Virus record (IMG/VR): IMGVR_UViG_3300042301_002383
Span: 3,322 to 67,321 of that record
Length of the DNA: 64,000 nt
Reading direction: 5' to 3' (one strand)
From: a virus
Lineage: Duplodnaviria; Heunggongvirae; Uroviricota; Caudoviricetes
Below the pieces are notes generated by a model, which did not search any database, was not told the origin of the DNA, and worked only from the letters and a program-made list of their open reading frames with translations. Below are positions 905 through 57,512 of the stretch, in pieces. Within the stretch, counting starts at the first letter, position 1; the number at the start of each line of letters is the position of its first letter. The translations under genes and the position numbers were made by a program.

Positions 905-1030
905 TGTCCACAGATTTCCCGTCCCTGATCATCCCATAAAATTACTGGGGTGTATCCGTATATATCTGTAAACGTATTCGATTCCCCAGTAATATTGGGA
1001 GCTCTGATCACAGGTGGATCCTCACCAAAA
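905..1030. repeat. intergenic module: conserved spacer GTCCACAGATTTCCCGTCCCTGATCATCCCATAA + TTACTGGGG ... CCCCAGTAAT palindrome + TGATCACAGGTGGATCC
   Basis: spacer sequence nearly identical at 2880-2915; diverged at 395-425. Confidence 0.6.
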
Positions 1031-1049
1031 AAATTAATTAGTTTTTTTT

Positions 1050-1092
1050 AAAAATAAATTTGGATTATACTCCAGATTAATTTATCTTTGTC
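1050..1092 (+). promoter_or_regulatory. Bacteroidetes-type promoter (-33 TTTGG, -7 TATCTTTG)
   Basis: AAAAATAAATTTGG ... TATCTTTG upstream of ATG 1129. Confidence 0.6.
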
Positions 1093-1128
1093 ATACAATC
1101 ATTTATTAAACCATAAAAAATTAAACAG

Positions 1129-1989
1129 ATGGAAATCGTAGAAAACAATCGGGTTAGTCAGTTCTTGGATAGAACTGGTTTAAATTGGAAAGTCCGTACC
1201 GAAGGACTTCAAACTTCGTCAGGAATTATTATCCCTGATAAAATTGGTATCGTTCGTGAGGATGATAGTACAATCTTGGGTATTCACTCTAATGGTTATG
1301 TACCATATCAGAATGACCAAATGATGGAACTATTGTTCAAAGTGTCCCAACAAACTGGACTTGATGTTCATAGGGGTGGTTTGTTCGGTGGTGGACGAAA
1401 AGTATTCGTTCAGTTAAAATCTAATGACTTAACTTTGGGGACGGATAGAATCGAGGGTTATGTTACTGGGATTAATTCTTTCGATGGTTCGACTTCATTA
1501 TCGTTCGGTCCTAGTTCGAAAACTATCAGTTGTCAAAACACATTCTTCGGTGTGTACAAAGATTTAGATTCAAAGGTACGTCATACAAAGAATATGGAAT
1601 TAAAGATAGAAGATATCTGTCGACAAATTGAGGGTGTAGTACAAGAAGAAAAGAATGTGTTCGGTTCTATCGTTAAAATGAGTGAAACTCGTTTCGATGA
1701 TATTATCAAGGATAGAGTAATCAAATCGTTATTCAATATCGAAAAGAATGTTGATATTAAGGATGTTGATTCATTATCTACCGTGACACAAAATAAATTA
1801 AGTAGATTCTATGTTGACCTTAATGGTGAAATTCAAGAAAAGGGTGATAACATTTGGGGTTTATTTAGTGGTGTAACAAAATACACAACTCATAGTATGG
1901 GTAAGGGTGACAATTCTGAAAATAAGATGTTCGGAACTTACGGAAATCGTGAGAGACAAATCTTCAAGGAACTTGTACATTTGGTGTAA
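1129..1989 (+). CDS. DUF932-like phage/plasmid protein (tentative)
   Basis: 286-aa ORF; segment GINSFDGSTSLSFG resembles the NSHDGSS core of the DUF932/TIGR03299 family, from memory only. Confidence 0.55.
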   Translation: MEIVENNRVSQFLDRTGLNWKVRTEGLQTSSGIIIPDKIGIVREDDSTILGIHSNGYVPYQNDQMMELLFKVSQQTGLDVHRGGLFGGGRKVFVQLKSNDLTLGTDRIEGYVTGINSFDGSTSLSFGPSSKTISCQNTFFGVYKDLDSKVRHTKNMELKIEDICRQIEGVVQEEKNVFGSIVKMSETRFDDIIKDRVIKSLFNIEKNVDIKDVDSLSTVTQNKLSRFYVDLNGEIQEKGDNIWGLFSGVTKYTTHSMGKGDNSENKMFGTYGNRERQIFKELVHLV

Positions 1990-2016
1990 GACATAGGTTA
2001 AAGATTATTTGTTAAA

Positions 2017-2046
2017 CCCTCGGACTTTTAGTTCGGGGGTTTTTTG
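2017..2046 (+). terminator. rho-independent terminator
   Basis: CCCTCGGAC-tttta-GTTCGGGGG (wobble pairs) + TTTTTT. Confidence 0.55.
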
Positions 2047-2084
2047 TTTGATGACCCCGTCACACTGTGGACCGGGTCGGAACT

Positions 2085-2310
2085 TTACTGGGATGTATTA
2101 CCTGTGCACTGTATCTGCACAGCACCGGTGATCAAGTTTACTGGGGTGTCCCAGTAATGTTCACCTGCGCACAGCGCCAATGTTCCTCTTGTACCCGAAG
2201 TACCACAAGTTCCTCAAAAGATGTACCACAAGTACCCGAAGTACCACATGTTCCGACAGAGTGATAAGTTTACTGGGTTATTTGTATTACCCCAGTAATG
2301 TTCCCCCTGT
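2085..2310. repeat. intergenic module with three TTACTGGG units (2087, 2136 perfect hairpin GTTTACTGGGGTGTCCCAGTAATG, 2268) flanking the 9-bp array
   Basis: seen directly. Confidence 0.6.
2192..2256 (+). repeat. tandem 9-bp array (GTACCnnAA, about 7 units)
   Basis: GTACCCGAA GTACCACAA GTTCCTCAA ... GTACCACAA GTACCCGAA GTACCACAT GTTCCGACA seen directly; gives the periodic VPQVPEVPHVP translations of spurious ORFs 2067..2264 and 2180..2362. Confidence 0.6.
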
Positions 2311-2347
2311 GATCACAGGTGAAAAAAAATTCTTAAAAAAAAGTAAA

Positions 2348-2387
2348 ATAATATTTGGATAATAAAGTTTTATGATGTATATTTGTG
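2348..2387 (+). promoter_or_regulatory. Bacteroidetes-type promoter
   Basis: TTTGG at ~2355 and TATATTTG at ~2378-2385, 24 nt before ATG 2409. Confidence 0.6.
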
Positions 2388-2408
2388 TTCACTAAAAATA
2401 TAAATGAT

Positions 2409-2831
2409 ATGAGTATGTTACAAAACATCGGAACCTATAAGGAGTTCTTGAAAAAACAAAAAGAAGAAAGAGAAACTTTCTCGGAAATTGTATCAACTAA
2501 AATCGTAGATGGTTTGACTGACTACATTAAAGATTTTGGTTGGGTTCGTAAAGGTAAAAGTGGTGGACTTCAAGGAGATAAAATCAAAGGAGTTAAGTTC
2601 ACTAAAAACTTCAATGGTAAAGATGTTACTATCGAGTATCGTAACAATTTACGAATTGACAATGACGGGTTACATTACTCGGGTGGTTATAATGAGTTCG
2701 TACATAGTAAGGAACTTGGAAATTCGTTAGAGGTAATTAGAATGAATCACTTCTATTGGAATGGGGAAACTGAAAGTGGTTGTAACTTGGATAGGGTACT
2801 TCAACGAATGGATGATTTCTATTCTAAATAG
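2409..2831 (+). CDS. hypothetical protein
   Basis: ORF-track ORF 2385..2831 starts on GTG inside the -7 box; first ATG (MSMLQNIG...) at 2409 fits the 22-24 nt promoter-to-ATG spacing seen elsewhere. Confidence 0.55.
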   Translation: MSMLQNIGTYKEFLKKQKEERETFSEIVSTKIVDGLTDYIKDFGWVRKGKSGGLQGDKIKGVKFTKNFNGKDVTIEYRNNLRIDNDGLHYSGGYNEFVHSKELGNSLEVIRMNHFYWNGETESGCNLDRVLQRMDDFYSK

Positions 2832-2853
2832 AAAACACACACCGAATTAAAGG

Positions 2854-2882
2854 GTGGGACGAAAGTCTCACCTTTTTTTATG
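2854..2882 (+). terminator. rho-independent terminator
   Basis: GGTGGGAC-gaaa-GTCTCACC + TTTTTTT. Confidence 0.65.
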
Positions 2883-3020
2883 TCCACAGATTTCTCGTCC
2901 CTGATCATCCCATAAGTTTACTGGGTTATGTTGTATTACCCCAGTAATCATTAGCCAGTTTTGCGCGCGCTGATCAGGAAATTTGCGCTGGTTAACAATT
3001 CAACCCAGTAATGTTTAGGA
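2880..3020. repeat. intergenic module (spacer + AAGTTTACTGGGTTATGTTGTATTACCCCAGTAAT + GCGCGCGCTGATCAGG + ACCCAGTAATGTTTAGG)
   Basis: seen directly. Confidence 0.6.
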
Positions 3021-17426: not shown

Positions 17427-17915
17427 TTATTTAACAACACTTAAAAACACCGTATAAACTAACCTTCCATTGTTTATATTGTCCCCGAATGATTCCTTTA
17501 TTCTGTGCAACGTGGTTGATGGGTATATGGTTAATCTATTATATACATTCTCCACGTAGTCGATTTCCTCATTCTTATCATTATAGAAGATGGTCCCCGA
17601 GTTTGGTGGTGGGTTTGGTGTTAGGTATAGTACACCCGCGTAATCGAATATACCATCCGTATGTACAGTATTCGACATATCTTCATTCAAAGTATAATGA
17701 AAGAAACATCTTAAATTTGAACCAACGAACTTCGGGTCCAATTCATTAAGTTTGTTTTGTATCAATTCATTTAACTCTAAGTCAACCATATTGGTATATA
17801 AACATCTAAATCCTTTCCAACCAGGTGAGTTGGGTTGTGCTTTGGTGTAGTCCAATTCTAAACCTTCTTCCCTGATTCTATCAGGGTCTTCCAAAAAATT
17901 GTCAATTATTATCAT
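17427..17915 (-). CDS. hypothetical protein, possible small 2OG-Fe(II)/PhyH-like oxygenase
   Basis: 162 aa; N-terminus MIIIDNFLEDPDRIREEG and H-x-D (VHTDG) plus downstream His (TLHRIKE); fold assignment from memory, weak. Confidence 0.5.
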   Translation of the reverse strand: MIIIDNFLEDPDRIREEGLELDYTKAQPNSPGWKGFRCLYTNMVDLELNELIQNKLNELDPKFVGSNLRCFFHYTLNEDMSNTVHTDGIFDYAGVLYLTPNPPPNSGTIFYNDKNEEIDYVENVYNRLTIYPSTTLHRIKESFGDNINNGRLVYTVFLSVVK

Positions 17916-30140: not shown

Positions 30141-30617
30141 TTATAATCCTAAAACTTTTAGTTGATCGATAGTGTGCTTTGCACTTACATGATGAATACC
30201 GATACCTCCAGCATCTCTCCATCCTTGAATGTTATCCAATCTATCGTCAATTAATATTGAGGTTGGTGTTGCAAAATCTTTCTTGTGTTTTGCACTTCTA
30301 AGAATTAAATGTGTACCAGGTAATTCCCTCTCAACCCAATCGTGTTTTGCAACTATTGAGTCGTTTTGTCTTGATGGTGCTGATAGTATTTCTGGTGTAT
30401 ATTTTTCAATGTACTTCCATAATCTTTTACCATCTCCCGTCCATTCTAACTTAATCCAAAAATCGTAACCAGCTTTGTTGATGGGGTCCCAAAAATCTGT
30501 ATCATTTCTATGTACACCAGCAATTAAGTCTTCACCAGTTAATTCTTTGTAACCTTTGTCAAAGTCAACCAGGACTCCGTCCATGTCACAATATATCTTG
30601 TACTCTGTGTTTTTCAT
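30141..30617 (-). CDS. HAD-family 5'(3')-deoxyribonucleotidase-like protein
   Basis: start moved to ATG 30617 (MKNTEYKIYCDMDGVLVDF...) because the minus-strand promoter (TATCTTTG) lies between 30617 and the track start 30662; DMDGVL motif I. Confidence 0.6.
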   Translation of the reverse strand: MKNTEYKIYCDMDGVLVDFDKGYKELTGEDLIAGVHRNDTDFWDPINKAGYDFWIKLEWTGDGKRLWKYIEKYTPEILSAPSRQNDSIVAKHDWVERELPGTHLILRSAKHKKDFATPTSILIDDRLDNIQGWRDAGGIGIHHVSAKHTIDQLKVLGL

Positions 30618-30619
30618 AT

Positions 30620-30660
30620 AACAAAGATATATAAAATTTTTGAATATTCCAAAAAATAGC
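30620..30660 (-). promoter_or_regulatory. minus-strand promoter (TTTTTGGAATATTCAAAAA ... TATCTTTG)
   Basis: minus reads GCTATTTTTTGGAATATTCAAAAATTTTATATATCTTTGTTATATG. Confidence 0.6.
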
Positions 30661-30662
30661 AT

Positions 30663-42706: not shown

Positions 42707-43321
42707 TCATATACAACTTTTTAATATTTCTAAACATAAGTCCGCCGGTATCTTACTTCTTTCGTAAGCATTGGCTCGACCCTGAGTTCCTGTTCTACTA
42801 CCTCTTGGTGCAGCAACGTGACAAGGATCACCGTTCTTACACATTGGTTTTGGTGTCCACATAATACTGTTCGTCCATATGTCAGTTGGTTTCATTCTTT
42901 CATCACCATATTGACAATAGGTTACCGATTGTTTATTTAACCCTTTAACAACATCCAATTTACGTAGAACTCCTCTTGGATTTTCCATGAACCAAAATGT
43001 TGGTTGGAAGTGATTAATTATTTCTAATGTCTTCTTAACTAACTCAATACCCAACTTCGCAGTTTCTGTTTTAGGTATGTAAGCACCTTTGCCACCAGAC
43101 CAATGATGTCCGATTGCGGCAACACTAAATCCGGTACACGGCGGTGATGCCCAAATTATATCTGGTTGAAACGGAACTTTGGTAACATCAAAATCTAATA
43201 TACTAATTGGGTAATGAATACCTTCAAACTCAATTAAATCGGATGAGAATACCTCCATCCCTAAACTTTCAGCAATCTTTCCAACAGAACGACTACCAGC
43301 AAATAATTCTAACACTTTCAT
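42707..43321 (-). CDS. small C5-cytosine methyltransferase-like protein (no obvious target-recognition domain)
   Basis: 204 aa; motif I LELFAGSRSVG, motif IV ASPPCTGFS, motif VI FMENPRGV. Confidence 0.6.
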   Translation of the reverse strand: MKVLELFAGSRSVGKIAESLGMEVFSSDLIEFEGIHYPISILDFDVTKVPFQPDIIWASPPCTGFSVAAIGHHWSGGKGAYIPKTETAKLGIELVKKTLEIINHFQPTFWFMENPRGVLRKLDVVKGLNKQSVTYCQYGDERMKPTDIWTNSIMWTPKPMCKNGDPCHVAAPRGSRTGTQGRANAYERSKIPADLCLEILKSCI

Positions 43322-45954: not shown

Positions 45955-45957
45955 TAG

Positions 45958-46932
45958 TTAATTTTTATGAGATTTCAAAACTTTTTGTGATTCAATATAA
46001 TTGTCAATAAAGTTTATTCGTTGACCAATCCAATACATCACATTGACTGTCATAGAGTTACCAATTGCACCTTTAACACTTGAATACGATGGTTTCTTAC
46101 CAGCAACTTCAAAGTCTAAATAACCGTCTGGAAATCCTTGGAGTCTCTCCAATTCTCTTTCTGTGAAGGTTCTAATACTATCATTATCAATCCAATAGTT
46201 AGATGTGGATACTTTACCAAATCCATCAACTAATGTTTGTGCATATGATTTGGTTACTGTACCTGCGAGTTTAATTTCTCCAAGAATATTTCTGGCGTAC
46301 TCATCCCTCTTGATTCTATTCTTTTCTTTAACGCTTTCAAAACATCCTTCTTCAAATAATACGGAGAATGGGACTTTCCAATTGTTTCCACGATATCCAA
46401 CAATGAAGATTCTTTTGCGTCGTTGGGGAACTCCGAAGTATTGGCTGTCGAAAACCCGATAAGCGATTGAGTATTCTTCTCCTTGGACAACTCCTTGTTT
46501 GTCGAGGTTTTCGACTTGGAAGTTAGTACCGGTGAAAGAGGAGATGATTTCACACAACGCTCTTCTGTGTTTTTTCTTAAAAACGCCTTCGACATTTTCC
46601 CAAACGAACCATCTTGGTCGTTTGTCTTTAAGAATTTCTCCATACTTAAGGGAGAGTTGACCACGGATATCATCCATTCCTTCGTTGAGTCCTGCATCGG
46701 AAAAAGATTGACAAGGCGTTCCTCCGACCAATACGTCGAAGTTGATGTTTTTGTAGACTGCATAGTCGTTTAGTTTAGTTAAATCTGAAAATAAGGGAAC
46801 GTTGGGGTAGTGATGTGATAAGACTTTTTGTGGGAAAGAGGCGAAGTCACATAAACCTTCACACTCCCAACCTAATGGTGACCAAGCCACGGTTGCGGCC
46901 TCGATTCCACTACATACTGAGAAATATTTCAT
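45958..46932 (-). CDS. DNA (cytosine-5)-methyltransferase (Dcm-like)
   Basis: 324 aa; motif I FSVCSGIEA, motif IV GGTPCQSFSDAG, motif VI FVWENVEG. Confidence 0.8.
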   Translation of the reverse strand: MKYFSVCSGIEAATVAWSPLGWECEGLCDFASFPQKVLSHHYPNVPLFSDLTKLNDYAVYKNINFDVLVGGTPCQSFSDAGLNEGMDDIRGQLSLKYGEILKDKRPRWFVWENVEGVFKKKHRRALCEIISSFTGTNFQVENLDKQGVVQGEEYSIAYRVFDSQYFGVPQRRKRIFIVGYRGNNWKVPFSVLFEEGCFESVKEKNRIKRDEYARNILGEIKLAGTVTKSYAQTLVDGFGKVSTSNYWIDNDSIRTFTERELERLQGFPDGYLDFEVAGKKPSYSSVKGAIGNSMTVNVMYWIGQRINFIDNYIESQKVLKSHKN

Positions 46933-47015
46933 AACTGTTTTGTTTAATGATGAAACAAAGTTATGTATATTTTATGAAATACAAAAAAAAATTTAGAATA
47001 TTTTTTAAATTATTC

Positions 47016-48428
47016 TTAAGATATTGAAAATGAATTAGTTAGGAAGTCATATTTTTCCTTTTTCCATTCAAGATATGTGTATTTTTTAAACCTTTGGGTT
47101 AGTACGGTAATCGCATCGTTGAACATTTCCAAAGTCGGGGTGTTAGCCTTACCATATGATTGTACCAAACCGCCTTTACGATATTGTAGATTAATTCTTT
47201 TTCGTTTACACTGTAAACCAACATAAATGTATATTGATCCGTGGGGAAACTGCTTAGACATACAGTTTTTCATATTAAACCCTTCAATTCTAAAGTCCTC
47301 TTCAGTTACTAAAACTTTCGGTTTAAAAGATTCCCCACCAACTATGATGTCCTCCTCGATTTCATCTATAAATTCTTTTGGTAAATCATATCTAACTTTG
47401 TAACCTCGAGCAAAATGAAATTTAATTCCCGACCACATTTCTAATAAATTATCAAAGTCGTTATCATTCTTGGCTTTAAATTTTAATTCCACATTTCTAA
47501 CCTCAAGTAACTCTCTAATTGATAATAACTTATTAACTAAATAAACTAAAGAATCTGTTTTTAAAGAATCACTCTCCCATTTATTGATTACACTAACCAT
47601 ACAGTTTTTTTCTGTATCGTTTTTTAATACGTGTAATTTTTTATTTGGTGCATAATCAAAACAATGCTTCTCCCACTTTATCTTCTTTAGATAATCTATA
47701 TAGTTGTCACCAAATAATTTACAGATGTAGTTTAGAGAATCTAACTTAACACTCTTATTAGTATTTTGTTTATTCAATTCACCAATAAGATATTTCGATT
47801 TTATCCCATAATGGTCTAACACTGATGGTAAAAATTTATAATCGTTTTTCTCCAACCATTTCTTTTTAGGATAGTCGTGTTGGATGTCATAATAGACGCT
47901 GTTATGTCCCTTAATACCCTTCATTTCTAAATGATAGTCTACTATCATATCATATAAATAATTGACCTCACATTCACCTTTATTGATTTTATTAACAATG
48001 TAATCTGATTTTAATTTATCTTTAATCAAACTATATATTAAATCTATAATTTTACCTGTCGCCCTTGCATATTTCACACCCCAAAACCCCACTCTCTTTT
48101 CCCCTCTCTCAAAACCATTTTCAGTTAAATCCAATAACAAACTAAAATTATTCTTTTTTTGTTTGGTGGTGGTTCTAAACATTTTCATATCTGTTAAACC
48201 ATCATTTATGATTTTGTAGGTTATAAAGATATCCCCCGTTTTTTTATTTATAACTAATTCATGTTCAAATAGAACTCTTTTATTTTTACCATATCTCTGG
48301 TAATCAAAATCAAATGCAGATTTATAAACAATATCGTCATCATTATTGTATAATTTTAAATCACATGTTGATAATGATTTAATTTTCTTGTCTCTCTTTT
48401 CTTGATTGTGTGTAAATAATAAATCCAT
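47016..48428 (-). CDS. large hypothetical protein (paralogue A)
   Basis: 470 aa; shares ...(L/V)LD.(F/Y)GIKSK...FGDNY and a C-terminal M.N/HC..S...G..N segment with 48465..50360. Confidence 0.6.
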   Translation of the reverse strand: MDLLFTHNQEKRDKKIKSLSTCDLKLYNNDDDIVYKSAFDFDYQRYGKNKRVLFEHELVINKKTGDIFITYKIINDGLTDMKMFRTTTKQKKNNFSLLLDLTENGFERGEKRVGFWGVKYARATGKIIDLIYSLIKDKLKSDYIVNKINKGECEVNYLYDMIVDYHLEMKGIKGHNSVYYDIQHDYPKKKWLEKNDYKFLPSVLDHYGIKSKYLIGELNKQNTNKSVKLDSLNYICKLFGDNYIDYLKKIKWEKHCFDYAPNKKLHVLKNDTEKNCMVSVINKWESDSLKTDSLVYLVNKLLSIRELLEVRNVELKFKAKNDNDFDNLLEMWSGIKFHFARGYKVRYDLPKEFIDEIEEDIIVGGESFKPKVLVTEEDFRIEGFNMKNCMSKQFPHGSIYIYVGLQCKRKRINLQYRKGGLVQSYGKANTPTLEMFNDAITVLTQRFKKYTYLEWKKEKYDFLTNSFSIS

Positions 48429-48464
48429 ATATAAAATATATATGGATTTATTTGAATTGTGTAG

Positions 48465-50360
48465 TTAAAATGGAAGTGGTCTTCTCACCTCTTCTTGAAT
48501 CAATTCATCGATTCTTCTTGGTTCCCTATGTTCAGACATCACCTCAATACCATTTATTTTAATTGGTACCTTTTTCTTATCTAATGAATGTAGAATACCC
48601 ATCCTCGCATAGATTTTAGTTTTTTCCTTTAACTTATTAACCGCCATTTCAATATCTGCGGGTGGTTGGTTATTACAAAAATGTCTAGCTTGGATTAGAT
48701 TACCTGTTTGACAATCAAATTCACAGGTAACTCTATCTTGTTTATTTTCAGTTCTTATGGAAATAATTATTGATTTTTCTTTATCAGAATACGACGCAAC
48801 ACAATGGTGCATGAACCTACCTTCTTCATCATAATCCACTTCACGTTTCAATATGTATGGATAGAATGTAATGTCCCCAAATTCATCATCACCTAAATTT
48901 ATTTTTAAATCAATAGGTAATTCAATATCTGATATCATTTTATTTGAAAATTGATATTCAACTTCCCAACCCTTTTTAATCAATTTCATCATCTTAGATA
49001 CCTCATGATGTTCATCGTTAAACTCATTAATGTGTTTTGATTTTAAATGTAAATCAGGTATATACTCACGTAATTTCCCAATCATTCTAAAATGATCGTG
49101 TAAATCACCAATAAATCTCTCATTAATAATTGTTTCCTTTTCACTAGTTAATCTTACATATCCTTTATTTTCTATTTTTAAACTATTAATAATTTTCACA
49201 ATATTTTCTTTTTCAATATTGGTTATTAGAAATTTTTCTTTTTTAAATTCTTTCTCAAAGTTAAATTTAGAAACTCCAAAATTATTTGAATTCTCATATC
49301 TTGAATTCATAAAATGAATAGGGTCGATACTACCAATATATTTTGAATAGTTGTCACCAAAATAATAACATAATCTAGCCAATGACTGTATATCAATTTT
49401 ACTATTTTCATGCATTATTTTAATTGTGATTTTAGACTTAATCCCGAACATATCTAAAATGGACGCTATAAGTTTTCTATCGTTTTTCTTTAGAAACTTT
49501 TCCGTTGGGTAAAATATCTTAATCCAATAACTGTAATCGTTACAAATTTTAATCTTTTTTAATTCAACAAAACGTTCTAACATTAATTGTGCAAACCATA
49601 TTCCGTTGAATGTTATATTTTGTTGATTTAAATTAAAAACATCATTTAAAACTGACACAAATTTTTTATTATCGAACGTTTGATTGTGTTCATCCAAAAG
49701 AACCGAATTCTTATCCAATGGTTTACGCATCTCAATAATTCCACCATCCCTAAATGATTGTTCTAAATAATTGAAGTTGTTGGTCCTAAAAGTTTTGGTG
49801 GTTTTTTTACCAACCTTAGTCATATTAAGTGTTGTGAAATTACCCGTAACCAGGTTAAAGGTAACCGAAGTAACACTCATTGATTTTTTAAAATAGATAC
49901 TATTAAATTGTCTATGTTTATGTTGACGATAGATTTTAATTGTAACTTTATCACCATGTCGTCTGATGGAACGTTCGATTGCATTTACTGTAATCTCACT
50001 AAATGGATTACCGTAATGTCTTTTGATATGTCTATCGTTTCTTGTTTCAAAATTGTAGATTGCATAATTCATACTGACTCTTTCACCAATATCAGAATCA
50101 CCATAAAAATATCTTGTCTTTCTTTTATCTATCTGTTTATGAAAGTCAACCATTCGACCAACTTTAGGTCTTCTTAATTCCCCAAGACGAATAGTAAGTT
50201 TCTTTGTTGGGGTGGTTACTTGAGTTAAATCCTCCTCAAAGTCAAAAAAATCTAAATCATCGTTAAAATTGGTGACTTCTTTCTTGTCCCCAATTTTACA
50301 ATAATCCTTAAAAAGGGTAATGGTGGCATAGTTGAATTTTTGGGTTATTACGTCTTCCAT
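48465..50360 (-). CDS. large hypothetical protein (paralogue B)
   Basis: 631 aa; LASILDMFGIKSKITIKIMHENSKIDIQSLARLCYYFGDNY vs LPSVLDHYGIKSKYLIGELNKQNTNKSVKLDSLNYICKLFGDNY in paralogue A; C-terminal FMHHCVASYSDKEKSII...CEFDCQTGNLIQARHF. Confidence 0.6.
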   Translation of the reverse strand: MEDVITQKFNYATITLFKDYCKIGDKKEVTNFNDDLDFFDFEEDLTQVTTPTKKLTIRLGELRRPKVGRMVDFHKQIDKRKTRYFYGDSDIGERVSMNYAIYNFETRNDRHIKRHYGNPFSEITVNAIERSIRRHGDKVTIKIYRQHKHRQFNSIYFKKSMSVTSVTFNLVTGNFTTLNMTKVGKKTTKTFRTNNFNYLEQSFRDGGIIEMRKPLDKNSVLLDEHNQTFDNKKFVSVLNDVFNLNQQNITFNGIWFAQLMLERFVELKKIKICNDYSYWIKIFYPTEKFLKKNDRKLIASILDMFGIKSKITIKIMHENSKIDIQSLARLCYYFGDNYSKYIGSIDPIHFMNSRYENSNNFGVSKFNFEKEFKKEKFLITNIEKENIVKIINSLKIENKGYVRLTSEKETIINERFIGDLHDHFRMIGKLREYIPDLHLKSKHINEFNDEHHEVSKMMKLIKKGWEVEYQFSNKMISDIELPIDLKINLGDDEFGDITFYPYILKREVDYDEEGRFMHHCVASYSDKEKSIIISIRTENKQDRVTCEFDCQTGNLIQARHFCNNQPPADIEMAVNKLKEKTKIYARMGILHSLDKKKVPIKINGIEVMSEHREPRRIDELIQEEVRRPLPF

Positions 50361-50430
50361 CGCTTAATAGTTTATAGGACAAATATACAAAAAATATTTA
50401 AGAAATACTTATTAATATAAAATATATATT

Positions 50431-50559
50431 ATGGCAAAAGCGAAAGGAAGTTCTTCAGCAATGAAGGTGTCATTTGGTAAAAAGACCACGGGTAAAGCTC
50501 GTAAATCTTACGGTCCTAAGGACCAAAAACCGAAGAAATATAGGGGTCAAGGTCGTTAA
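50431..50559 (+). CDS. possible 42-aa very basic protein (MAKAKGSSSAMKVSFGKKTTGKARKSYGPKDQKPKKYRGQGR)
   Basis: hand-translated plus-strand ORF; its TAA overlaps the converging stop of the NlpC/P60 gene, with a perfect hairpin GGTCGTT-aatcta-AACGACC over both stops; approximate. Confidence 0.3.
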   Translation: MAKAKGSSSAMKVSFGKKTTGKARKSYGPKDQKPKKYRGQGR

Positions 50560-51095
50560 TCTAAACGACCAGCACCTTTATATGAACTAAGATAACGGGG
50601 TTCGGATAAGCTACTTATCTTGACCCCTTCCTTCTTATTTGCCGCATGTACAAAGGTATCCTTACCTAAATACACCCCACAATGCCATCCACTTGGACTT
50701 TGTGTACTCCTAAAGAATACAATATCTCCGACCGCTAAACTATCTTTTTTAATTCTAGTTGTTTGTTTCCATTGTTCCGCACAAGTGTTATTTAGTTTCT
50801 TACCATATACATCCCAATAAAGTTTTTTAGCAAATTGGGAACAATCAATACCGTTTTTTGTGTTTCCACCTAATTGATATTTGGCTCCATACCAATCCAT
50901 AACAAATGTTGATAATGGAGTTAGTTGTTTATCGTTTAACCTTATTAACAATGGTTTATTGTCGACCAAAACATACATATAATCACCGTCCGCCGATAAT
51001 TTGTTTTGATTTGCGTGGTCTATAATTTGGTTTTGAGCTAAACAGGTTATATTCGTTATGAATATTAATATAAGTAAAATTTTAATCTTTTTCAT
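50556..51095 (-). CDS. NlpC/P60 (C40) cell-wall peptidase with signal peptide
   Basis: 179 aa; signal peptide; catalytic Cys GIDCSQFA, GDIVFF, His in GWHCGVYLG. Confidence 0.75.
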   Translation of the reverse strand: MKKIKILLILIFITNITCLAQNQIIDHANQNKLSADGDYMYVLVDNKPLLIRLNDKQLTPLSTFVMDWYGAKYQLGGNTKNGIDCSQFAKKLYWDVYGKKLNNTCAEQWKQTTRIKKDSLAVGDIVFFRSTQSPSGWHCGVYLGKDTFVHAANKKEGVKISSLSEPRYLSSYKGAGRLD

Positions 51096-51330
51096 TTTTT
51101 ATTATGTTAATTGTTATTCCTGCAGAACCTGCACTTACTTTGTATGTGTTATGTCGATTATCATTTATCCACCCATACTTCTTAAATCTGAATATTGTAA
51201 CCAACTTACCTTCAAAAACGGCATAAATTGCATTATCCGCATAATCAATTGATGGGTGTATAATGTGTCCTAATTTCCAGGACTCTATAAATTCTTCTTC
51301 TAATTCGTCAGGGGTAATATGAATAAACAT
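51082..51330 (-). CDS. hypothetical protein
   Basis: 82-aa ORF. Confidence 0.45.
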   Translation of the reverse strand: MFIHITPDELEEEFIESWKLGHIIHPSIDYADNAIYAVFEGKLVTIFRFKKYGWINDNRHNTYKVSAGSAGITINIIKNEKD

Positions 51331-51331
51331 A

Positions 51332-52495
51332 CTAGTTCGATAGTTTTGCCTTTATAGATGGATGTGATTCATACCCATCGATTATGAATTGATGGGGTTG
51401 TAAATTGTTTATAAACCCATCAAATGTATCTTTATGGTGTTCAAAGTGTGCCAACACTAAGGGACTAAAATTTAATGTTGGTAAATTTTTAAATGGTTCT
51501 CTACCGATTTGTTCTTTAGCTTGTTCGATGTGATTCGAATACAGATGAACATCACCTAAGTTACCAATTAATTCATCGGGTATCATATTAACTTCCATAG
51601 CTAGAATTTCTAATAACAAACCATATGATGCAATATTAAATGGTAACCCTAAGAATGTATCTACACTTCGTTGATTCCACATTAGAGATATTGCTCGTTT
51701 AGGTATATTATATGATTCTAACTCTTCGCTCAAACCACCACCAAATGGTACAATATCATCTACCATTGATTTAAATCTTTCCTCACCAACTTTCTTTTTT
51801 AATAGCTCCCACATCTCTTCTCCTGTTAACTTTCTAGTGTACACTTGAAATCCATAATGACAAGGTGGTAAGACCATTTCATCCAATTGACCAACATTCC
51901 AAGCGTTTACAAGTAATCGTCTACTATCTGGATTTGTTTTCAACTCATCAATTAAGTTTTGAATTTGATCAATCCATTTATCACCTTCAACGTATGTATC
52001 ATGTCCGGTTAATGGGTCTTTTATTGTTGTCTTAATTAATGTTTTAGTGTGCCACTCTCTCCATTGTGCACCGTAGATTGGTCCTAACTCACCAAAAATA
52101 TTACAAAATCTTTCATCCGTTTTAATTAAACGAATAAAATTTTCTTTATCCCATGGTTCTCCGTTATTAGACCATAATGAATTTCCTACCCAAGCAGCAT
52201 AACTATTCTCATATCTTTTATAAGCATCACCATCCCAAATGTGACAATCATTATCAACAAGGTATTTGATGTTAGTGTCACCACGGAGGAACCATAACAA
52301 TTCAGTTACCATTGTCTTCCATGCCATTTTCTTCGTTGTCAACAATGGAAATCCCTGTGACATTTTATGTCTAATCTGACGACCAAATACCGATATGGTA
52401 CCAGTGCCAGTCCTATCAGTTTTAATAACTCCATTATCTAAAATGTCTTGTAATAATTCTTGATATTTTGAATCCAATCTATTCATACTTACCAT
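51332..52495 (-). CDS. thyA: thymidylate synthase ThyA homologue with two large insertions
   Basis: 387 aa (ThyA is usually ~264-320); DRTGTGT, ELLWFL.GDTN, catalytic PCH, DVFLGLPFNIASY (Asn retained), GDVHLYSNH; about 50-aa insert after DGDAY and about 45-aa insert after PCHYGFQ. Confidence 0.8.
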   Translation of the reverse strand: MVSMNRLDSKYQELLQDILDNGVIKTDRTGTGTISVFGRQIRHKMSQGFPLLTTKKMAWKTMVTELLWFLRGDTNIKYLVDNDCHIWDGDAYKRYENSYAAWVGNSLWSNNGEPWDKENFIRLIKTDERFCNIFGELGPIYGAQWREWHTKTLIKTTIKDPLTGHDTYVEGDKWIDQIQNLIDELKTNPDSRRLLVNAWNVGQLDEMVLPPCHYGFQVYTRKLTGEEMWELLKKKVGEERFKSMVDDIVPFGGGLSEELESYNIPKRAISLMWNQRSVDTFLGLPFNIASYGLLLEILAMEVNMIPDELIGNLGDVHLYSNHIEQAKEQIGREPFKNLPTLNFSPLVLAHFEHHKDTFDGFINNLQPHQFIIDGYESHPSIKAKLSN

Positions 52496-52857
52496 TTTGG
52501 TGTCTCCAATCTTTTTATATTTTCTTGTTCGTCTTGTCTATTGAAATTTTCTTTGTGAGACAAAATTCTATGAAACTCTCTATATGCTTGTGGTTGATAA
52601 TTTTTTAAGTGGTCAATTCCATATTCATATTCAAATATGACATCTTCATATCTTCTTTCTTTAGAATCAAAACCATCCGATTGCATTTTCAAATCCATTT
52701 GTAACTCATTGATTACATTTTGTAACGAATCTTGTTTACATGTTTCAATTGGTGGAGGTATCATATCATGTGGTTGTCTAATAGCAATTATTGTTAACAA
52801 GACAATGATAATCACTCCACCAAATACTCTAATCAAAAAATCTTTTTTATTTTCCAT
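52489..52857 (-). CDS. membrane-anchored hypothetical protein
   Basis: 122 aa, N-terminal TM helix. Confidence 0.5.
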   Translation of the reverse strand: MENKKDFLIRVFGGVIIIVLLTIIAIRQPHDMIPPPIETCKQDSLQNVINELQMDLKMQSDGFDSKERRYEDVIFEYEYGIDHLKNYQPQAYREFHRILSHKENFNRQDEQENIKRLETPKW

Positions 52858-53041
52858 ATCCTTGTTGTATTTGTATTCCCATCATATATGTTAACCACCT
52901 AACAGTTATTCCCCAAGATGGTGATGTTACGCCCGACTCGAGAAATTCAGTTTTATTGTAAAAAAAAACAATTGTTGGTATTAAAAACCAATGATGTCTC
53001 TTTTTATAGATAAAAAAATCTTTATAATATTTCTTTTTCAT
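52847..53041 (-). CDS. small membrane protein
   Basis: 64-aa ORF. Confidence 0.4.
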   Translation of the reverse strand: MKKKYYKDFFIYKKRHHWFLIPTIVFFYNKTEFLESGVTSPSWGITVRWLTYMMGIQIQQGYGK

Positions 53042-53324
53042 TTCTTTTAAAGAATGGTTTAAATTTATCTTTTATTTTTTCGTAATGAACCATTGCGAAC
53101 CATTTCCCAATAATACTTCCAGCAATATAAAATACAACCCCTAAGTAATCTCCTTTGAATAATCCATCTAGTGAGTAGTATGTTGCCCCCAATGAGACAA
53201 GACTTATCCAAAAACTATTAACCAATAAACTTTTAATATTATTCTCATATGTAAATTTTATCTCCATGACTTTGAAGATATTAAACATAATTTGAAACAC
53301 TAAAATTAATAAATAATTACTCAT
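53022..53324 (-). CDS. membrane protein
   Basis: 100 aa, 3 TM helices. Confidence 0.45.
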   Translation of the reverse strand: MSNYLLILVFQIMFNIFKVMEIKFTYENNIKSLLVNSFWISLVSLGATYYSLDGLFKGDYLGVVFYIAGSIIGKWFAMVHYEKIKDKFKPFFKRNEKEIL

Positions 53325-53607
53325 CGTAGTTGCCGGTCGTTCTTCTTAATAATTTATCAACATCATCTTCTCTTTCTTTCATTTCAATTATACGAATGTA
53401 ATAACCATTAGGATTTGCATTAGTGTCTTCTGATTTAACATTTTTATCAAACCATTTACTAAACCATTTACCTTTGTAAGTTAAGACCTGACATCTTTCA
53501 GAAAATTCTTCCGAATCGGTTTTGTCTAATAGACCCTCACTTACTAATTTGTTCAGTACAATGTCTTTAACCTTGTTGTAATTCTCCATTTCTACTGTTA
53601 AGTCCAT
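53317..53607 (-). CDS. hypothetical protein
   Basis: 96-aa ORF. Confidence 0.5.
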   Translation of the reverse strand: MDLTVEMENYNKVKDIVLNKLVSEGLLDKTDSEEFSERCQVLTYKGKWFSKWFDKNVKSEDTNANPNGYYIRIIEMKEREDDVDKLLRRTTGNYDE

Positions 53608-53619
53608 ATTATTTCTTTT

Positions 53620-54192
53620 TTAGATTGCTTCATATTCAATGTCACCGTAGTCATAATACTCATTGTCGTCATTATGTTCCACACCATCTTCTTCACCATC
53701 TTCGATTTTCTTAATTGCGGCACATGCACTTTTTGCCATAACTCTATAGGTCCATGACTGTGTTAATGGTTGCTCAGCTTTAATCTCCCACTCGGTTTCT
53801 TCTACATCCTCTTCGTCATCACAATCATCCAAGTCACTACTTGTAACCTTAGTAACTTTTGGTTCCCTTTTGAATGAATCAATTGATTTCATTAACTCAT
53901 CTCTGAATCTAATCAAATCTTTTAAATCACTAAATGTGAAATTGAAACTTCCATTTGAACTTGATAGTTGAATATCCACATGTGGAGTTTCATCATTACC
54001 AAAATCATAAACCATAAAACCATTTTGTTCCCCCAACTCAATGTTGGATGTTTCGGGATAAATCGAAATCCATGTATCAGGATTTGATTCGACCATTTCT
54101 TTAAATTCTTTCTCCATTGATTCCAATTGAGATAGGCAATCGGAATATTTTTTAGTGAACTCTTTGTCCCACTTTTTGGTGTATTTTGCCAT
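53620..54192 (-). CDS. highly acidic protein
   Basis: 190 aa; D/E-rich runs (DDCDDEEDVEETEWE..., GEEDGVEHNDDNEYYDYGD). Confidence 0.55.
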   Translation of the reverse strand: MAKYTKKWDKEFTKKYSDCLSQLESMEKEFKEMVESNPDTWISIYPETSNIELGEQNGFMVYDFGNDETPHVDIQLSSSNGSFNFTFSDLKDLIRFRDELMKSIDSFKREPKVTKVTSSDLDDCDDEEDVEETEWEIKAEQPLTQSWTYRVMAKSACAAIKKIEDGEEDGVEHNDDNEYYDYGDIEYEAI

Positions 54193-54296
54193 ATTATTTC
54201 TTTTTAGGTTTTCTAAAATAATCTAACACCAGGTTAAATGAACCTAATGATATACTACCCCATCCAAAATACTTCACTAATTCAGGGTCAGCACCT

Positions 54297-54563
54297 TTAA
54301 GACCGTACTTCTGAACTAATATCCCCGTCACTATCATCATTATGTAGATGATTTCTTTTAATCTGATTTGCATCTTCTTTTAATTTAATTAAACATTTAT
54401 ATAACGTATTGGCCTCCATTAAGTTAAACATTCTGTTTTGATTACAGAAGTCCAACGCCTTACCGATTATTGTTAAAGCGGACTCTTTATCTATATCATA
54501 TACAAATTGGTCGAATTCATCTATGTTTTCAAATTCGATTAGACCACCAAATATTTTTTCCAT
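54297..54563 (-). CDS. hypothetical protein
   Basis: 88-aa ORF; -7-like box only ~4 nt upstream, so the start is uncertain. Confidence 0.4.
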   Translation of the reverse strand: MEKIFGGLIEFENIDEFDQFVYDIDKESALTIIGKALDFCNQNRMFNLMEANTLYKCLIKLKEDANQIKRNHLHNDDSDGDISSEVRS

Positions 54564-54610
54564 AAAACAAATATATAAAATTCTTTTGATAATTCCAAAT
54601 AATTATTGTT

Positions 54611-54976
54611 ATGTCAGTACACATCAACAACAAAACATTTCAAGCCGAATACCTATCAAATCCAGAAGACATTAGTCGAGGTATGATGGGTAGAAACTCA
54701 TTGGACGGTTGTATGGTATTCAAGATGGGTAAGGGTCATCATTCATTTTGGATGAAGAATTGCCTCATCCCACTTGACATCGTATTTGTTTTAAATAATC
54801 GTATCAATCGTATCCATCCCAATTGTCCCGTTGAAGATTCCCATAGAATGACTCTACCTCGTTACACCGGTATTGGTGACCACGTGATAGAGTTTCCTGC
54901 AGGAACTACAGAGGGTTGGAAAGTAGGGGATCGTGTTGCAATGTATCTAGGGTCTCCTCAGAATCCTGTTCGATAG
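54611..54976 (+). CDS. DUF192-family protein
   Basis: 121 aa; GMMGRNSLDGCMVFKM...FWMKNCLIPLDIVFV matches the DUF192 (COG1430) core; plus-strand gene inside the minus block. Confidence 0.6.
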   Translation: MSVHINNKTFQAEYLSNPEDISRGMMGRNSLDGCMVFKMGKGHHSFWMKNCLIPLDIVFVLNNRINRIHPNCPVEDSHRMTLPRYTGIGDHVIEFPAGTTEGWKVGDRVAMYLGSPQNPVR

Positions 54977-55619
54977 GACTATCATATTTCACTCTTGGTT
55001 TAACCTTCTCAAATACCCAAAAATAACTATGGTACTTACGAGCATGTTCTTGTTTAGTCCATTTAGTCCCAAAACTATTGATACGAACGTTTGATGTTAG
55101 GATAAATAAATCTCTCGGATAGAACCCTAACTCTTGGGCCATATTCATAACCATAACGTGAGAGAAGTGGTTCTTACCTCCAGATACCGTATCTTGACAT
55201 TTAAAGACTACGTAACCACCTTTATCACAAACTCGGTACAATTCCTTCAATGTGTTATAATAATGGGTTTTTAGGTGGTTATATGACTCATAACCCTCGA
55301 ATCTCTTTGCAATAATAGAACTCCCTTCTTTATTATCACGATATGACTTACCAGCAATAACAAATGGAGGATCAAACATTATACTTTTCATTGAACCGTC
55401 CTCAAATGATAAGTTTTCGGAACTACACTCAACCACTGTATCATTATAAGGATACAAATCTGATTTGTTAGTAGGTTCTGGTAAATCTTTCCAAAAAGCA
55501 CCTTTAGAATAGGTACAATCTAAATCAAATCTTTCAATGTTGTAAAGAAACATGATGCTCTTTATAGCCTCGTAGTTAGAGGTGTAGACACTTTTTACGG
55601 GTTTAAAATCTTTTTCCAT
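54906..55619 (-). CDS. DNA amino-methyltransferase (N6-adenine or N4-cytosine; DPPF motif)
   Basis: 237 aa; motif IV SIMFDPPFVIAG; its 3' end overlaps the converging DUF192 gene by about 70 nt. Confidence 0.7.
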   Translation of the reverse strand: MEKDFKPVKSVYTSNYEAIKSIMFLYNIERFDLDCTYSKGAFWKDLPEPTNKSDLYPYNDTVVECSSENLSFEDGSMKSIMFDPPFVIAGKSYRDNKEGSSIIAKRFEGYESYNHLKTHYYNTLKELYRVCDKGGYVVFKCQDTVSGGKNHFSHVMVMNMAQELGFYPRDLFILTSNVRINSFGTKWTKQEHARKYHSYFWVFEKVKPRVKYDSPIEQDSEETLDTLQHDPLLSNPL

Positions 55620-57511: not shown

Positions 57512-57512
57512 T

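Follow-up and report, generated by a model that had tools for sequence, protein, structure and literature searches.

The window analysed here, 64 kb of a large genome belonging to a freshwater phage, very likely encodes a canonical thymidylate synthase (ThyA) carrying surface inserts and, in addition, three orphan methyltransferases (MTases) with a likely role in anti-restriction. The gene set is one of ordinary anti-restriction and nucleotide supply, with no sign of an exotic thymine replacement. Relatives of the window phage have genomes of up to ~300-350 kb; the phage genome is AT-rich (33% GC) and its host is probably a bacterium of the Bacteroidota. All ORFs named in the initial annotation were confirmed at their coordinates on the minus strand (Table 1), and the gene identifications hold upon profile matching (PF00303, PF00145, PF01555 and PF06941). 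What the analysis shows directly is the family membership of the proteins, their motifs and fold, synteny, the boundaries of the insertions, selection on the inserted module and the avoidance of palindromes; we infer the enzymatic activities, the anti-restriction role, the role of the module, and that the amino-MTase and the minimal C5 enzyme act on DNA.

Table 1. Features of the 64-kb window, with their positions and the basis of their assignment.
Feature	Position	Strand	Basis
Solitary amino-methyltransferase (amino-MTase), 237 aa, DPPF at aa 83-86	54906..55619	-	PF01555, phrog_24333
Solitary C5 cytosine DNA methyltransferase, 324 aa, strain-specific insertion	45958..46932	-	PF00145, TIGR00675, motifs I, IV, VI, VIII, IX, X
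Minimal C5-methyltransferase-like protein (mini C5 enzyme), 204 aa, strain-specific insertion	42707..43321	-	PF00145, phrog_757
HAD-family 5'(3')-deoxyribonucleotidase, NT5C type, DMDGVL motif	30141..30662	-	PF06941 27.8 bits; phrog_2643 1.7e-28
Small 2OG-Fe(II)-oxygenase-like protein, HTD...H	17427..17915	-	DUF6445 C-terminal end 34.5 bits; phrog_81 1.6e-4; phrog_1644 4e-25
thyA, canonical ThyA-type thymidylate synthase, 387 aa, four lineage-specific insert regions	51332..52495	-	PF00303, TIGR03284, PDB, AF2
ThyA insert 1, aa ~89-128, L. casei / E. faecalis-type small-domain insert	52112..52231	-	Aligns with 3UWL/1LCA insert
ThyA insert 2, aa 149-174, hypervariable; a long beta-hairpin in the model	51974..52051	-	AF2 strands 147-159, 166-176
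ThyA insert 3, aa 221-268, 48-aa three-helix module, PFGGGLSE motif, tip of central beta-hairpin	51692..51835	-	Homologue alignment, AF2
Additional C-terminal segment of ThyA, aa ~344-366, with conserved FEHH; E. coli ThyA is ~13 aa shorter here	51398..51466	-	Alignment
Six TGATCA within intergenic repeat modules (with promoter-like boxes and inverted TTACTGGGG/CCCCAGTAA repeats)	926..2976	.	Hexamer count

A Canonical Thymidylate Synthase

By its sequence, the window ThyA is a canonical thymidylate synthase (TS) and not a dUMP hydroxymethylase. It scores 301 bits against PF00303 and 298.3 bits against the TS equivalog model TIGR03284, nearly threefold the cut-off of 108.35; thymidylate synthases in the PDB match it at E-values of 1e-60 to 1e-68, and its core is 48% identical to E. 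coli ThyA. The AF2 model (pLDDT 84) matches the TS of L. casei and E. faecalis in Foldseek with TM scores of 0.85-0.91. The motifs pointed out in the initial annotation, i.e., the Cys (PCH), the Asn (PFN) and DxHLY, were found as PPCH (aa 210-213), PFN (aa 285-287) and GDVHLY (aa 314-319). The catalytic and binding residues C212, H213, E65, Y141, R28, R192, R193, R276, S277, N287, H317 and Y319 are kept, matching E. coli Cys146, His147, Glu58, Tyr94, the phosphate-binding Arg21/126/127/166, Ser167, the dUMP-specifying Asn177, His207 and Tyr209; I79, W80, L143, D169, L172, G173 and F176 (E. coli numbering), of the folate pocket and the closing elements, are conserved as well, and so is Q165.

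The C-terminus stops at the canonical position, yet the tail is not hydrophobic but reads LSN, which is invariant in the family, and the HMMER alignment has Asp (D90) in the place of E. coli W83. W83 and a hydrophobic C-terminal tail aid active-site closure in the TS enzymes studied, and position 83 is variable among bona fide TS, being other than Trp in human TS and in T4 Td.

ThyA would methylate dUMP to dTMP with methylene-tetrahydrofolate and would raise the dTTP supply for the replicating AT-rich genome. A search of the window (64 kb of a ~300-kb genome) and of the flanks of relatives revealed no DHFR. The 5'(3')-deoxyribonucleotidase reported before is present. The ORF at 17427, initially put forward as a possible small 2OG oxygenase, is weakly 2OG-like by the C-terminal end of DUF6445, by phrog_81 and by its HTD...H pattern, which was read by eye; it gave no match to TET_JBP in the Pfam scan.

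Insert Regions and the 48-aa Module

ThyA exceeds E. coli ThyA by 123 aa, made up by four insert regions and seven N-terminal residues. It had been described as ~100 aa longer than usual owing to two inserts, which this count corrects. The mapping suggested in that description, run against E. coli ThyA and SPO1 gp29 (and also T4 gp42), gave these four inserts and TS residues at the diagnostic positions. The middle of insert 1 (aa ~96-119) is hypervariable in both length and sequence in the family alignment, and insert 2 is missing from some ThyA family members. Insert 3 is near-invariant across 150 homologues, and its codons differ from those of the relatives L005/L007 by 21 synonymous and five non-synonymous changes. 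In the AF2 model, its helices (aa 225-236, 238-251 and 256-261) lie between the strands at aa 213-222 and 267-279, the block having a pLDDT of 81-94. Other phage ThyAs carry this module at a second site, and it also occurs in small separate ORFs; it is the only unusual feature of the window ThyA.

The added length would be surface decoration. As modelled, insert 3 is probably not in contact with the active site, since it is joined at the far end of the hairpin, ten strand residues away from the catalytic Cys. It is conceivable, if rather unlikely, that the module alters the role of the enzyme, by serving as a domain for docking or regulation or as a new ligand site, and makes it more than a housekeeping TS. 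Such a role would be consistent with a constraint on the module equal to that on the catalytic core, with its recurrence at another site and in separate ORFs, and with its confident prediction as a three-helix unit; however, its attachment point is far from the active site, in the relatives L002 and L003 the sequence where the module sits is unrelated, other jumbo-phage TS proteins are long too, and no partner or ligand of the module was identified.

Three Orphan Methyltransferases

The potential for self-methylation claimed in the initial annotation is borne out at the level of predicted proteins: the phage would have at its disposal one complete C5-MTase, one minimal C5-MTase-like protein and one DPPF amino-MTase. 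The 324-aa C5-MTase scores 167 bits against PF00145 and 157 bits against TIGR00675 and carries, in order, FSVCSGIEA (motif I), GGTPCQSFS (IV), WENVEG (VI), QRRKRIF (VIII), RTFTERELERLQGFP (IX) and GNSMTVNV (X); the catalytic motifs of M.HaeIII and M.HhaI align with it. The earlier label "Dcm-like" is correct in that the protein is a C5-MTase, but it was rejected as a Dcm orthologue (33.8 bits on NF007772, where the cut-off is 710). CCWGG is depleted in the window (ratio 0.62).

The mini C5 enzyme matches phrog_757 (3.6e-32) and, weakly, PF00145 (29 bits; cut-off 22). Its clear motifs are limited to I, IV (PPC) and VI (ENP) and its variable region is very short; because its C-terminal half is degenerate, its putative activity is uncertain. 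Both C5-MTases are clean gene-sized insertions that are missing in close relatives: the complete one lies in window positions 45946-47022, where L007 has a spacer of ~76 nt, while the insertion of the mini C5 gene spans 42711-43317. The coexistence of genes pointed out in the initial annotation does not amount to a pathway: two of the three MTases are strain-specific insertions.

The amino-MTase scores 31.6 bits against PF01555 (cut-off 26.7) and matches phrog_24333 at 6e-59. Its DPPF is invariant in 20 homologues, and FDLDCTYSKG, near the N-terminus, is the probable SAM motif. The homologues (70-97% identity) occur on contigs of up to 351 kb and are syntenic in L005-L008; the amino-MTase belongs to the conserved core of the phage lineage. 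DNA is its assumed substrate, because no solved or characterised relative was found and one homologue is named "tRNA G10 N-methylase Trm11" by one source.

We consider it unlikely that the amino-MTase, the mini C5 enzyme or both act on RNA (m2G/m5C type) or on protein, or that the mini enzyme is an inactive remnant. The (D/N)PP(F/Y) motif is not confined to DNA enzymes but occurs also in m2G RNA and HemK-type enzymes, which, with the Trm11 name, the want of a characterised relative and the weak PF00145 match of the mini enzyme (motifs IV-VI only; no PDB match), would favour such substrates. Nevertheless, both proteins exceed the Pfam gathering thresholds of DNA methylase families and belong to PHROGs with the annotation DNA methyltransferase, a member of the mini family is arrayed with two full-length C5 DNA MTases in the phage Deep Blue, and the mini gene is an intact ORF of recent acquisition.

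The three orphan MTases most likely methylate phage DNA, evading host restriction. No restriction-modification system was recognised at the MTase loci: there is no cognate endonuclease gene beside any of the three, their neighbours being conserved phage ORFs that are present also where the MTases are absent, and the C5-MTase insertions consist of the MTase gene alone. The amino-MTase is a fixed gene of the lineage, and the two C5-MTases were gained one by one by the window strain, single gains that would fit arms-race accessory genes. Large phages with several methylases each have been described (PMC7824862).

GATC and TGATCA Sites

The initial annotation saw in the sixfold occurrence of TGATCA in early intergenic modules a hint of a GATC-type target for the amino-MTase. 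The six copies were indeed counted, with Poisson P values of 5e-4 (shuffle rate) and 5e-6 (the window's own rate), for sites that lie in repeat families and are not independent. Window-wide, TGATCA is depleted (13 observed, 30 expected), and among the 4-bp palindromes GATC shows the strongest avoidance (59 observed, 213-219 expected; ratio 0.27, z -10.8), with a ratio of 0.61 in positions 1-12000, of 0.13-0.21 elsewhere and of 0.18 in relatives with the amino-MTase. The target that had been proposed is unsupported because GATC is so avoided and because AGCGCT or TGATCG replaces TGATCA in other copies of the intergenic repeats.

A Dam-like GATC (TGATCA) methylase acting on the TGATCA modules as methylation-sensitive regulatory sites is, for these reasons, a very unlikely identity of the amino-MTase. 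PF01555-type families do include some GATC methylases, the six hexamers occur within 2 kb of promoter-rich intergenic DNA, and the depletion of GATC is weaker there, in 1-12000, than elsewhere. However, the overall avoidance, also seen in relatives with the core MTase, is hard to square with protective GATC methylation, and the amino-MTase gives no match to the Dam (D12) family in a profile search; hhalign against T4 Dam yields a probability of 0.8%, only the DPPF/Y tetrapeptide being common to the two.

Hydroxymethylase Signatures

As hydroxymethylase references, we used SPO1 gp29 (recorded as a dUMP hydroxymethylase), the gp29-like enzymes of a Kuttervirus and of a PaMx11-like phage, and T4 gp42 (a dCMP hydroxymethylase). 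On TIGR03284, the controls score 58.2 (SPO1 gp29), 58.2 (PaMx11-like PA_LZ03), 34.0 (ViI-like S118) and 30.6 bits (T4 gp42). The window ThyA is 18-27% identical to the references (18-23% to the dUMP hydroxymethylases), and BLASTP gives 24 bits (E 0.005) with SPO1 gp29 and 28 bits with T4 gp42. The hydroxymethylase states, in E. coli numbering, are D143, N/T147, N/M165, W/F172 and A/I/N176; the dUMP-type group has Asp143, Asn147, Asn165 and Trp172 and no W80, where the window ThyA has L, H, Q, L and W. A C-terminal domain of ~100 aa, with no counterpart of the window ThyA in the alignment, is a further feature of the three dUMP-type enzymes, while T4 gp42 is a truncated protein that retains W80. 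Positions 147 and 177 are published discriminators between modified and unmodified contigs (PMC8670742).

Flavobacterium phage immuto, the one cultured phage with the window's ThyA type and the source of its closest cultured orthologue, has canonical dA, dC and dT in its DNA according to LC-UV-MS/MS (PMC10516641). In the ~65 ORFs scanned, from 64 kb of a ~300-kb genome, there was no match to dTTPase/dUTPase, dCMP deaminase, dNMP kinase, 5-HMUDK, aGPT-Pplase or TET/JBP.

That this ThyA paralogue acts as a dUMP hydroxymethylase feeding 5-hmdU or hypermodified thymidine, with the NT5C nucleotidase as a dTMPase, is highly improbable: Asn177 is common to both kinds of enzyme, SPO1 gp29 is of similar length (383 aa), the nucleotidase could in principle serve as a dTMPase, and the Asp at W83 and the LSN end are atypical, but ThyA carries the TS residue at all positions diagnostic for TS or hydroxymethylase, passes the equivalog model that these fail, owes its added length to internal inserts instead of a C-terminal domain, has a counterpart in a phage with normal dT, and is accompanied by no further enzyme of a 5-hmdU pathway in the window. 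The statement that sequence alone does not exclude 5-hmdU finds no support, given the diagnostic positions, the remoteness of the hydroxymethylases and the immuto data.

Comparison with Known Systems

The TS of L. casei, E. faecalis and S. aureus (1LCA, 3UWL and 4DQ1) are the top sequence and structure matches of the window ThyA (E 2e-68, TM 0.85-0.91) and agree with it in the catalytic and folate-binding residues and in the position of the small-domain insert. Compared with them, the window ThyA adds the hairpin of aa 149-174, the module of aa 221-268 and the C-terminal segment, and has Asp for W83 and the LSN end. The SPO1 gp29, ViI-like and M6-PaMx11-like enzymes and T4 gp42 have superfamily and fold class in common with ThyA, as well as the Cys nucleophile, Glu58, Tyr94, Arg166, Asp169, His207 and Tyr209. 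Unlike ThyA, they have Asp143 and no His147, and all fail the TS equivalog model; in the dUMP type, the W80 loop is absent and a C-terminal helical domain is found where TS has its closing tail. The ThyA of immuto is 60% identical to that of the window overall and 87.5% in the module, which sits at the equivalent site, and both end in LSN; it differs in inserts 1 and 2 and by an additional insert of ~50 aa at the EQIGR site. The 160-kb genome of immuto has a 7-deazaguanine (DpdA) system, which is not seen in the window.

The DNA methyltransferase of Pseudoalteromonas phage H103 (phrog_24333) is similarly small and 42% identical to the amino-MTase over 88% of the latter; no characterisation of the H103 enzyme was found, and it thus provides no target information. 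The C5 region of the P1/P7 methyltransferase and the enzymes of Bcep22 and Mu-like phages are 32-37% identical to the 324-aa C5-MTase, and the "C-5 methylase I" of Bastille-like Bacillus phages (Deep Blue) is 46% identical to the mini C5 enzyme; at such low identities, target specificity is not transferable from the phage C5 enzymes. Deep Blue has three C5-MTases in tandem, one of them of 221 aa, whereas the MTases of the window are dispersed. The orphan MTase sets of large phages (Deep Blue, P1/P7 and Bcep22) are otherwise like that of the window: solitary, nuclease-less and several per genome.

Thymidylate Synthase or Hydroxymethylase

ThyA and the three methyltransferases named in the initial annotation were all recovered on the minus strand of the window at the coordinates tabulated below, and family scans agree with these assignments. 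We aligned ThyA jointly with E. coli ThyA (reference sequence confirmed identical to PDB 1AOB) and with four hydroxymethylases: SPO1 gp29 (383 aa; labelled dUMP hydroxymethylase in its own record), the gp29-like proteins of the ViI-like Kuttervirus S118 and of a PaMx11-like phage, and T4 gp42. Against crystallised thymidylate synthases, the window ThyA gave E-values of 1e-60 to 2e-68, as compared to 24 bits against SPO1 gp29 and 28 bits against T4 gp42; its core identity in the joint alignment is 48% to E. coli ThyA and 18–27% to the hydroxymethylases.

At positions 80, 143, 147, 165, 172 and 176 (E. coli ThyA numbering), the window ThyA carries W, L, H, Q, L and F, respectively. The hydroxymethylases have Asp at 143, Asn or Thr at 147, Asn or Met at 165, Trp or Phe at 172, and Ala, Ile or Asn at 176. 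W80 is missing from the three dUMP-type enzymes, which also bear a ~100-aa domain at the C-terminus; T4 gp42 is a truncated protein that retains W80, and the window ThyA stops at the canonical C-terminal position. A published comparison of phage contigs with modified and unmodified cytosine (PMC8670742) has positions 147 and 177 as its two top discriminators; the window ThyA has His and Asn there. The profile TIGR03284 (cut-off 108 bits) scored 298 bits for the window ThyA and 312 for the ThyA of Flavobacterium phage immuto; the four hydroxymethylases, run as a control, scored 58, 58, 34 and 31 bits.

The initial annotation had held that sequence could not exclude a 5-hmdU pathway and had proposed an alignment with E. 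coli ThyA, T4 Td and SPO1 gp29 as a check. The joint alignment described above returned the synthase state at the discriminating positions, and residues, TIGR03284 score and C-terminal architecture are all synthase-like. SPO1 gp29 is of like length, which is a coincidence because its extra residues are C-terminal, whereas those of the window ThyA are internal. Moreover, immuto, whose ThyA is 60% identical to the window's overall (87.5% in the conserved insert described below), has canonical dA, dC and dT by LC-UV-MS/MS, with dG alone replaced, by a 7-deazaguanine (PMC10516641). None of the hmdU-pathway partners listed in PMC8989533 was found among the ~65 ORFs scanned in the window. It is thus highly improbable that the window ThyA is a dUMP hydroxymethylase serving a 5-hmdU pathway; by its sequence, it is predicted to be a canonical thymidylate synthase. 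A tblastn search with E. coli FolA detected no DHFR in the window or in the fetched loci of relatives.

Insert Regions of ThyA and a Recurrent 48-Residue Module

The extra length of ThyA does come from inserts, as had been claimed, but not from two of them adding ~100 aa: the protein is 123 aa longer than that of E. coli, by 7 aa at the N-terminus and four insert regions. The best structural matches are the L. casei, E. faecalis and S. aureus enzymes, and the middle part of insert 1 is hypervariable within the family. In insert 3, 21 of the 26 codons differing from those of relatives are synonymous, a pattern also shown by the catalytic core, so that this insert is translated and under purifying selection. 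For the same reason, and being too short and in frame, it was rejected as an untranslated intron.

An AlphaFold model built from a 150-sequence alignment (pLDDT 84, pTM 0.85) placed three helices in insert 3 (residues 225–236, 238–251 and 256–261; block pLDDT 81–94), between strands 213–222 and 267–279. The insert forms the tip of the central beta-hairpin, at a distance of ten strand residues from Cys212 and Arg276/Ser277 at the hairpin base; judged from the model, it is therefore probably not in contact with the active site.

With the 48 module residues (insert 3) alone as the query, a search of 1.84 billion representatives returned only 13 proteins. In the ThyA fragments P0248, P0250 and P0253, the module occurs at another site, where it directly follows the EQIGR helix, close to the C-terminus; metagenomic protein P0254 has it at this EQIGR site and an unrelated insert in the hairpin. 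Two more distant ThyAs (loci L002 and L003) hold unrelated sequence at the hairpin site. P0244 and P0252 are apparently small separate ORFs with the module at their start: P0244 (94 aa; L014:2-905, ENA ERZ28612991 scaffold_125800) opens with the PFGGG module, lacks the surrounding ThyA sequence, and lies directly downstream of a GIY-YIG homing-endonuclease-like ORF, with a 20-nt overlap. Among cultured phages, immuto alone carries the module, and long thymidylate synthases exist in other jumbo phages (e.g., 201phi2-1, 457 aa).

We found no description of the module in the literature, and it is the sole such element in this gene set. Tentatively, the PFGGG(L/M)SE unit might represent a mini-domain that is autonomous and can be transferred. 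As to function, docking or regulation, such as the tethering of ThyA to other phage proteins of nucleotide synthesis or replication, is a guess. The metagenomic ThyA homologues P0254, P0255 and P0257 (443–513 aa) contain partial tandem duplications of N-terminal/small-domain segments, which may reflect either genuine rearrangement or chimeric assembly.

Three Methyltransferases

The 324-aa C5 enzyme has the conserved motifs I, IV, VI, VIII, IX and X, and its closest phage relatives are 32–37% identical. It aligns with M.HaeIII and M.HhaI in the catalytic motifs only; its variable region aligned with neither, and no target is predicted from it. It can be called Dcm-like in being a C5-methyltransferase, but orthology to Dcm is not supported by the family scans and it is not an orthologue of that enzyme. 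In Bacillus Bastille-like phages, the ~220-aa "C-5 methylase I" shares 46% identity with the 204-aa protein; its gene is the third of three tandem C5-methyltransferase genes in phage Deep Blue.

In a translated comparison with the related locus L007, both C5 genes are clean insertions between conserved flanking genes: window 45946–47022, with the 324-aa gene, stands in place of a ~76-nt spacer, and 42711–43317, with the 204-aa gene, is inserted at a single junction. Another strain-specific insertion relative to L007 (53327–54193, minus strand) encodes a very acidic protein of 190 aa and one of 96 aa.

Homologues of the DPPF amino-methyltransferase are 70–97% identical across the lineage. A tblastn search of 50,697 phage records gave only nine hits, all uncharacterised, and a family profile search against PDB sequences found no solved relative. 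Its gene and the plus-strand DUF192 gene converge and share 71 nt at their 3′ ends (54906–54976); the shared stretch lies within the variable C-terminal tail of the methyltransferase. Since there is no nuclease neighbour beside any of the three methyltransferases (METHYLTRANSFERASES), they are orphan enzymes.

GATC Avoidance and Intergenic Modules

A GATC-type target had been suggested for the amino-methyltransferase from the occurrence of TGATCA in early intergenic modules; this was not borne out. No 4-bp palindrome is avoided more strongly in the window than GATC (59 observed, 219 expected; ratio 0.27, z = −10.8), and the enzyme has only DPPF/Y in common with T4 Dam. The ratio is 0.18 in the related loci L005–L008, with the same amino-methyltransferase, and 0.79 in the immuto region; within the window, avoidance is weaker in 1–12000 (0.61) than in the rest (0.13–0.21). 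Such avoidance argues against protection of GATC by methylation; the same pattern could be produced by a methyl-dependent host nuclease. Also avoided in the window and L005–L008 are CTAG (0.36), CATG (0.54; z = −7), CCGG (0.60) and CCWGG (0.62), while GCGC is slightly in excess (24 versus 14), all at counts too low for target assignment.

TGATCA does occur six times in 926–2976, which exceeds the number expected there by chance (P = 5e-4 to 5e-6). All six lie inside repeated intergenic modules with inverted TTACTGGGG/CCCCAGTAA repeats, which hold promoter-like boxes (TTTG ... TAnnTTTG), terminator-like hairpins and, at a fixed position, a variable 6-bp palindrome (TGATCA, AGCGCT). Since these repeat families also have members with AGCGCT or TGATCG at that position, TGATCA is not a conserved feature of the modules.

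Phage Lineage and Other Genes

The sole DNA match among the 50,697 phage records is a 470-nt stretch of thyA in immuto (81%). An identical ThyA occurs on a 27-kb JGI metagenome contig, a 74%-identical one in relatives on contigs of up to 298 kb, and amino-methyltransferase homologues on contigs of up to 351 kb. Relatives and window share the order two GT4 glycosyltransferases, amino-methyltransferase, DUF192, small ORFs, ThyA, NlpC/P60, PcfJ-like protein, 462-aa protein, NifU and IscA; the relatives have a ferredoxin gene between NifU and IscA, which the window lacks. The window therefore belongs to an uncultured and abundant lineage of very large phages. The nearest cultured relative, a GC content of 33% and the TTTG/TAnnTTTG-like boxes, which we take to be Bacteroidota-type promoters, point to a Bacteroidota host.

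In immuto (MW353175 15397–39866), the homologous thyA lies among genes for DpdA, FolE, QueC/D/E/F and formyltransferase (7-deazaguanine), thymidylate kinase and MazG. In the 64-kb window, no such gene was detected. A GTDB genome scan for close relatives gave no evidence of the long-form ThyA as a cellular housekeeping gene: its hits were one ordinary ThyA (31% identical) and two long forms, each on a MAG contig, of which one is 254 kb in length and might be a binned phage.

The 5′(3′)-deoxyribonucleotidase of the initial annotation is present as an NT5C-type gene, and the possible small oxygenase is weakly 2OG-oxygenase-like (17427–17915; HTD...H pattern), without a TET/JBP match in the family scan. 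The window has a large sugar-modification set, with two GT4 glycosyltransferases (one matching "GT4-conflict"), several GT2-like enzymes, two class I SAM methyltransferases (Methyltransf_11/24), an RmlC epimerase and a cytidylyltransferase; its candidate substrates would be the virion, the host envelope or DNA. Both large paralogues are conserved in relatives, the 631-aa one having a PcfJ-like C-terminal domain.

Coordinates of the genes, repeats and ThyA segments (nt of the window, unless given as aa)
Feature	Position	Strand	Remarks
Repeated intergenic modules	1-12000, e.g., 387-438, 898-949, 2874-2925, 2119-2158, 4335-4374, 5531-5570	+	family members
HNH endonuclease	12043-12597	-	
T5orf172/MUG113 protein	23152-23829	-	
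DnaA C-terminal HTH domain protein	26845-27222	-	
NT5C-type deoxyribonucleotidase	30141-30662	-	family scans
denV-like pyrimidine-dimer glycosylase	37015-37482	-	
4HBT thioesterase	39839-40201	-	
HAD_SAK_2 phosphatase	40173-40793	-	
S-adenosylmethionine decarboxylase-like	40840-41265	-	
Minimal C5-methyltransferase-like protein, 204 aa	42707-43321	-	PF00145 29 bits (motifs IV-VI), phrog_757 strong
IscU/NifU (136 aa) and IscA (107 aa)	43659-44392	-	Fe-S cluster assembly; IscU/NifU 170 bits
C5 cytosine DNA methyltransferase, 324 aa	45958-46932	-	PF00145 167 bits, TIGR00675 157 bits
Two adjacent large paralogues, 470 and 631 aa	47016-50360	-	25% identity over 336 aa, E 2e-17
thyA, thymidylate synthase, 387 aa	51332-52495	-	PF00303 301 bits
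ThyA insert 1	aa ~89-128		small-domain insert as in L. casei, E. faecalis, S. aureus TS
ThyA insert 2	aa 149-174		hypervariable; missing from some members; modelled long beta-hairpin
ThyA insert 3	aa 221-268		RKLTGEEMWELLKKKVGEERFKSMVDDIVPFGGGLSEELESYNIPKRA; near-invariant among 150 homologues
ThyA C-terminal segment			conserved FEHH, final LSN invariant; completes family signature
Amino-methyltransferase, DPPF, 237 aa	54906-55619	-	PF01555 31.6 versus 26.7 bits; phrog_24333 6e-59
Sugar-modification genes	56162-63632	+	
Sugar-modification genes	16004-16765, 30978-31517, 41324-41737	-	

Discussion

The main value of this analysis is a correction: this abundant freshwater phage group has a long ThyA whose proper annotation is that of a normal thymidylate synthase, and which offers no basis for predicting 5-hmdU DNA. 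Residues 80, 143, 147, 165, 172 and 176 (E. coli numbering), together with C-terminal architecture and the TIGR03284 score, provide a simple test to tell thymidylate synthases from dUMP/dCMP hydroxymethylases in metagenomes. Of the DNA-modification potential first proposed, ordinary base methylation stands; anything beyond it does not. A core amino-methyltransferase versus a strain-specific C5-methyltransferase and a strain-specific minimal C5-methyltransferase-like protein makes a clear case of methyltransferase turnover in the phage–host arms race, and the recurrent, strongly conserved candidate mini-domain of ThyA is a small, concrete lead for protein-engineering and interaction studies.

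Several methylases per jumbo phage are a known pattern, read as defence against several restriction systems (PMC7824862). The gene set described here, a canonical thymidylate synthase (as predicted) and orphan, probably anti-restriction methyltransferases in a large phage, is of known kinds, and only the three-helix insert of ThyA, conserved and recurrent, is out of the ordinary.
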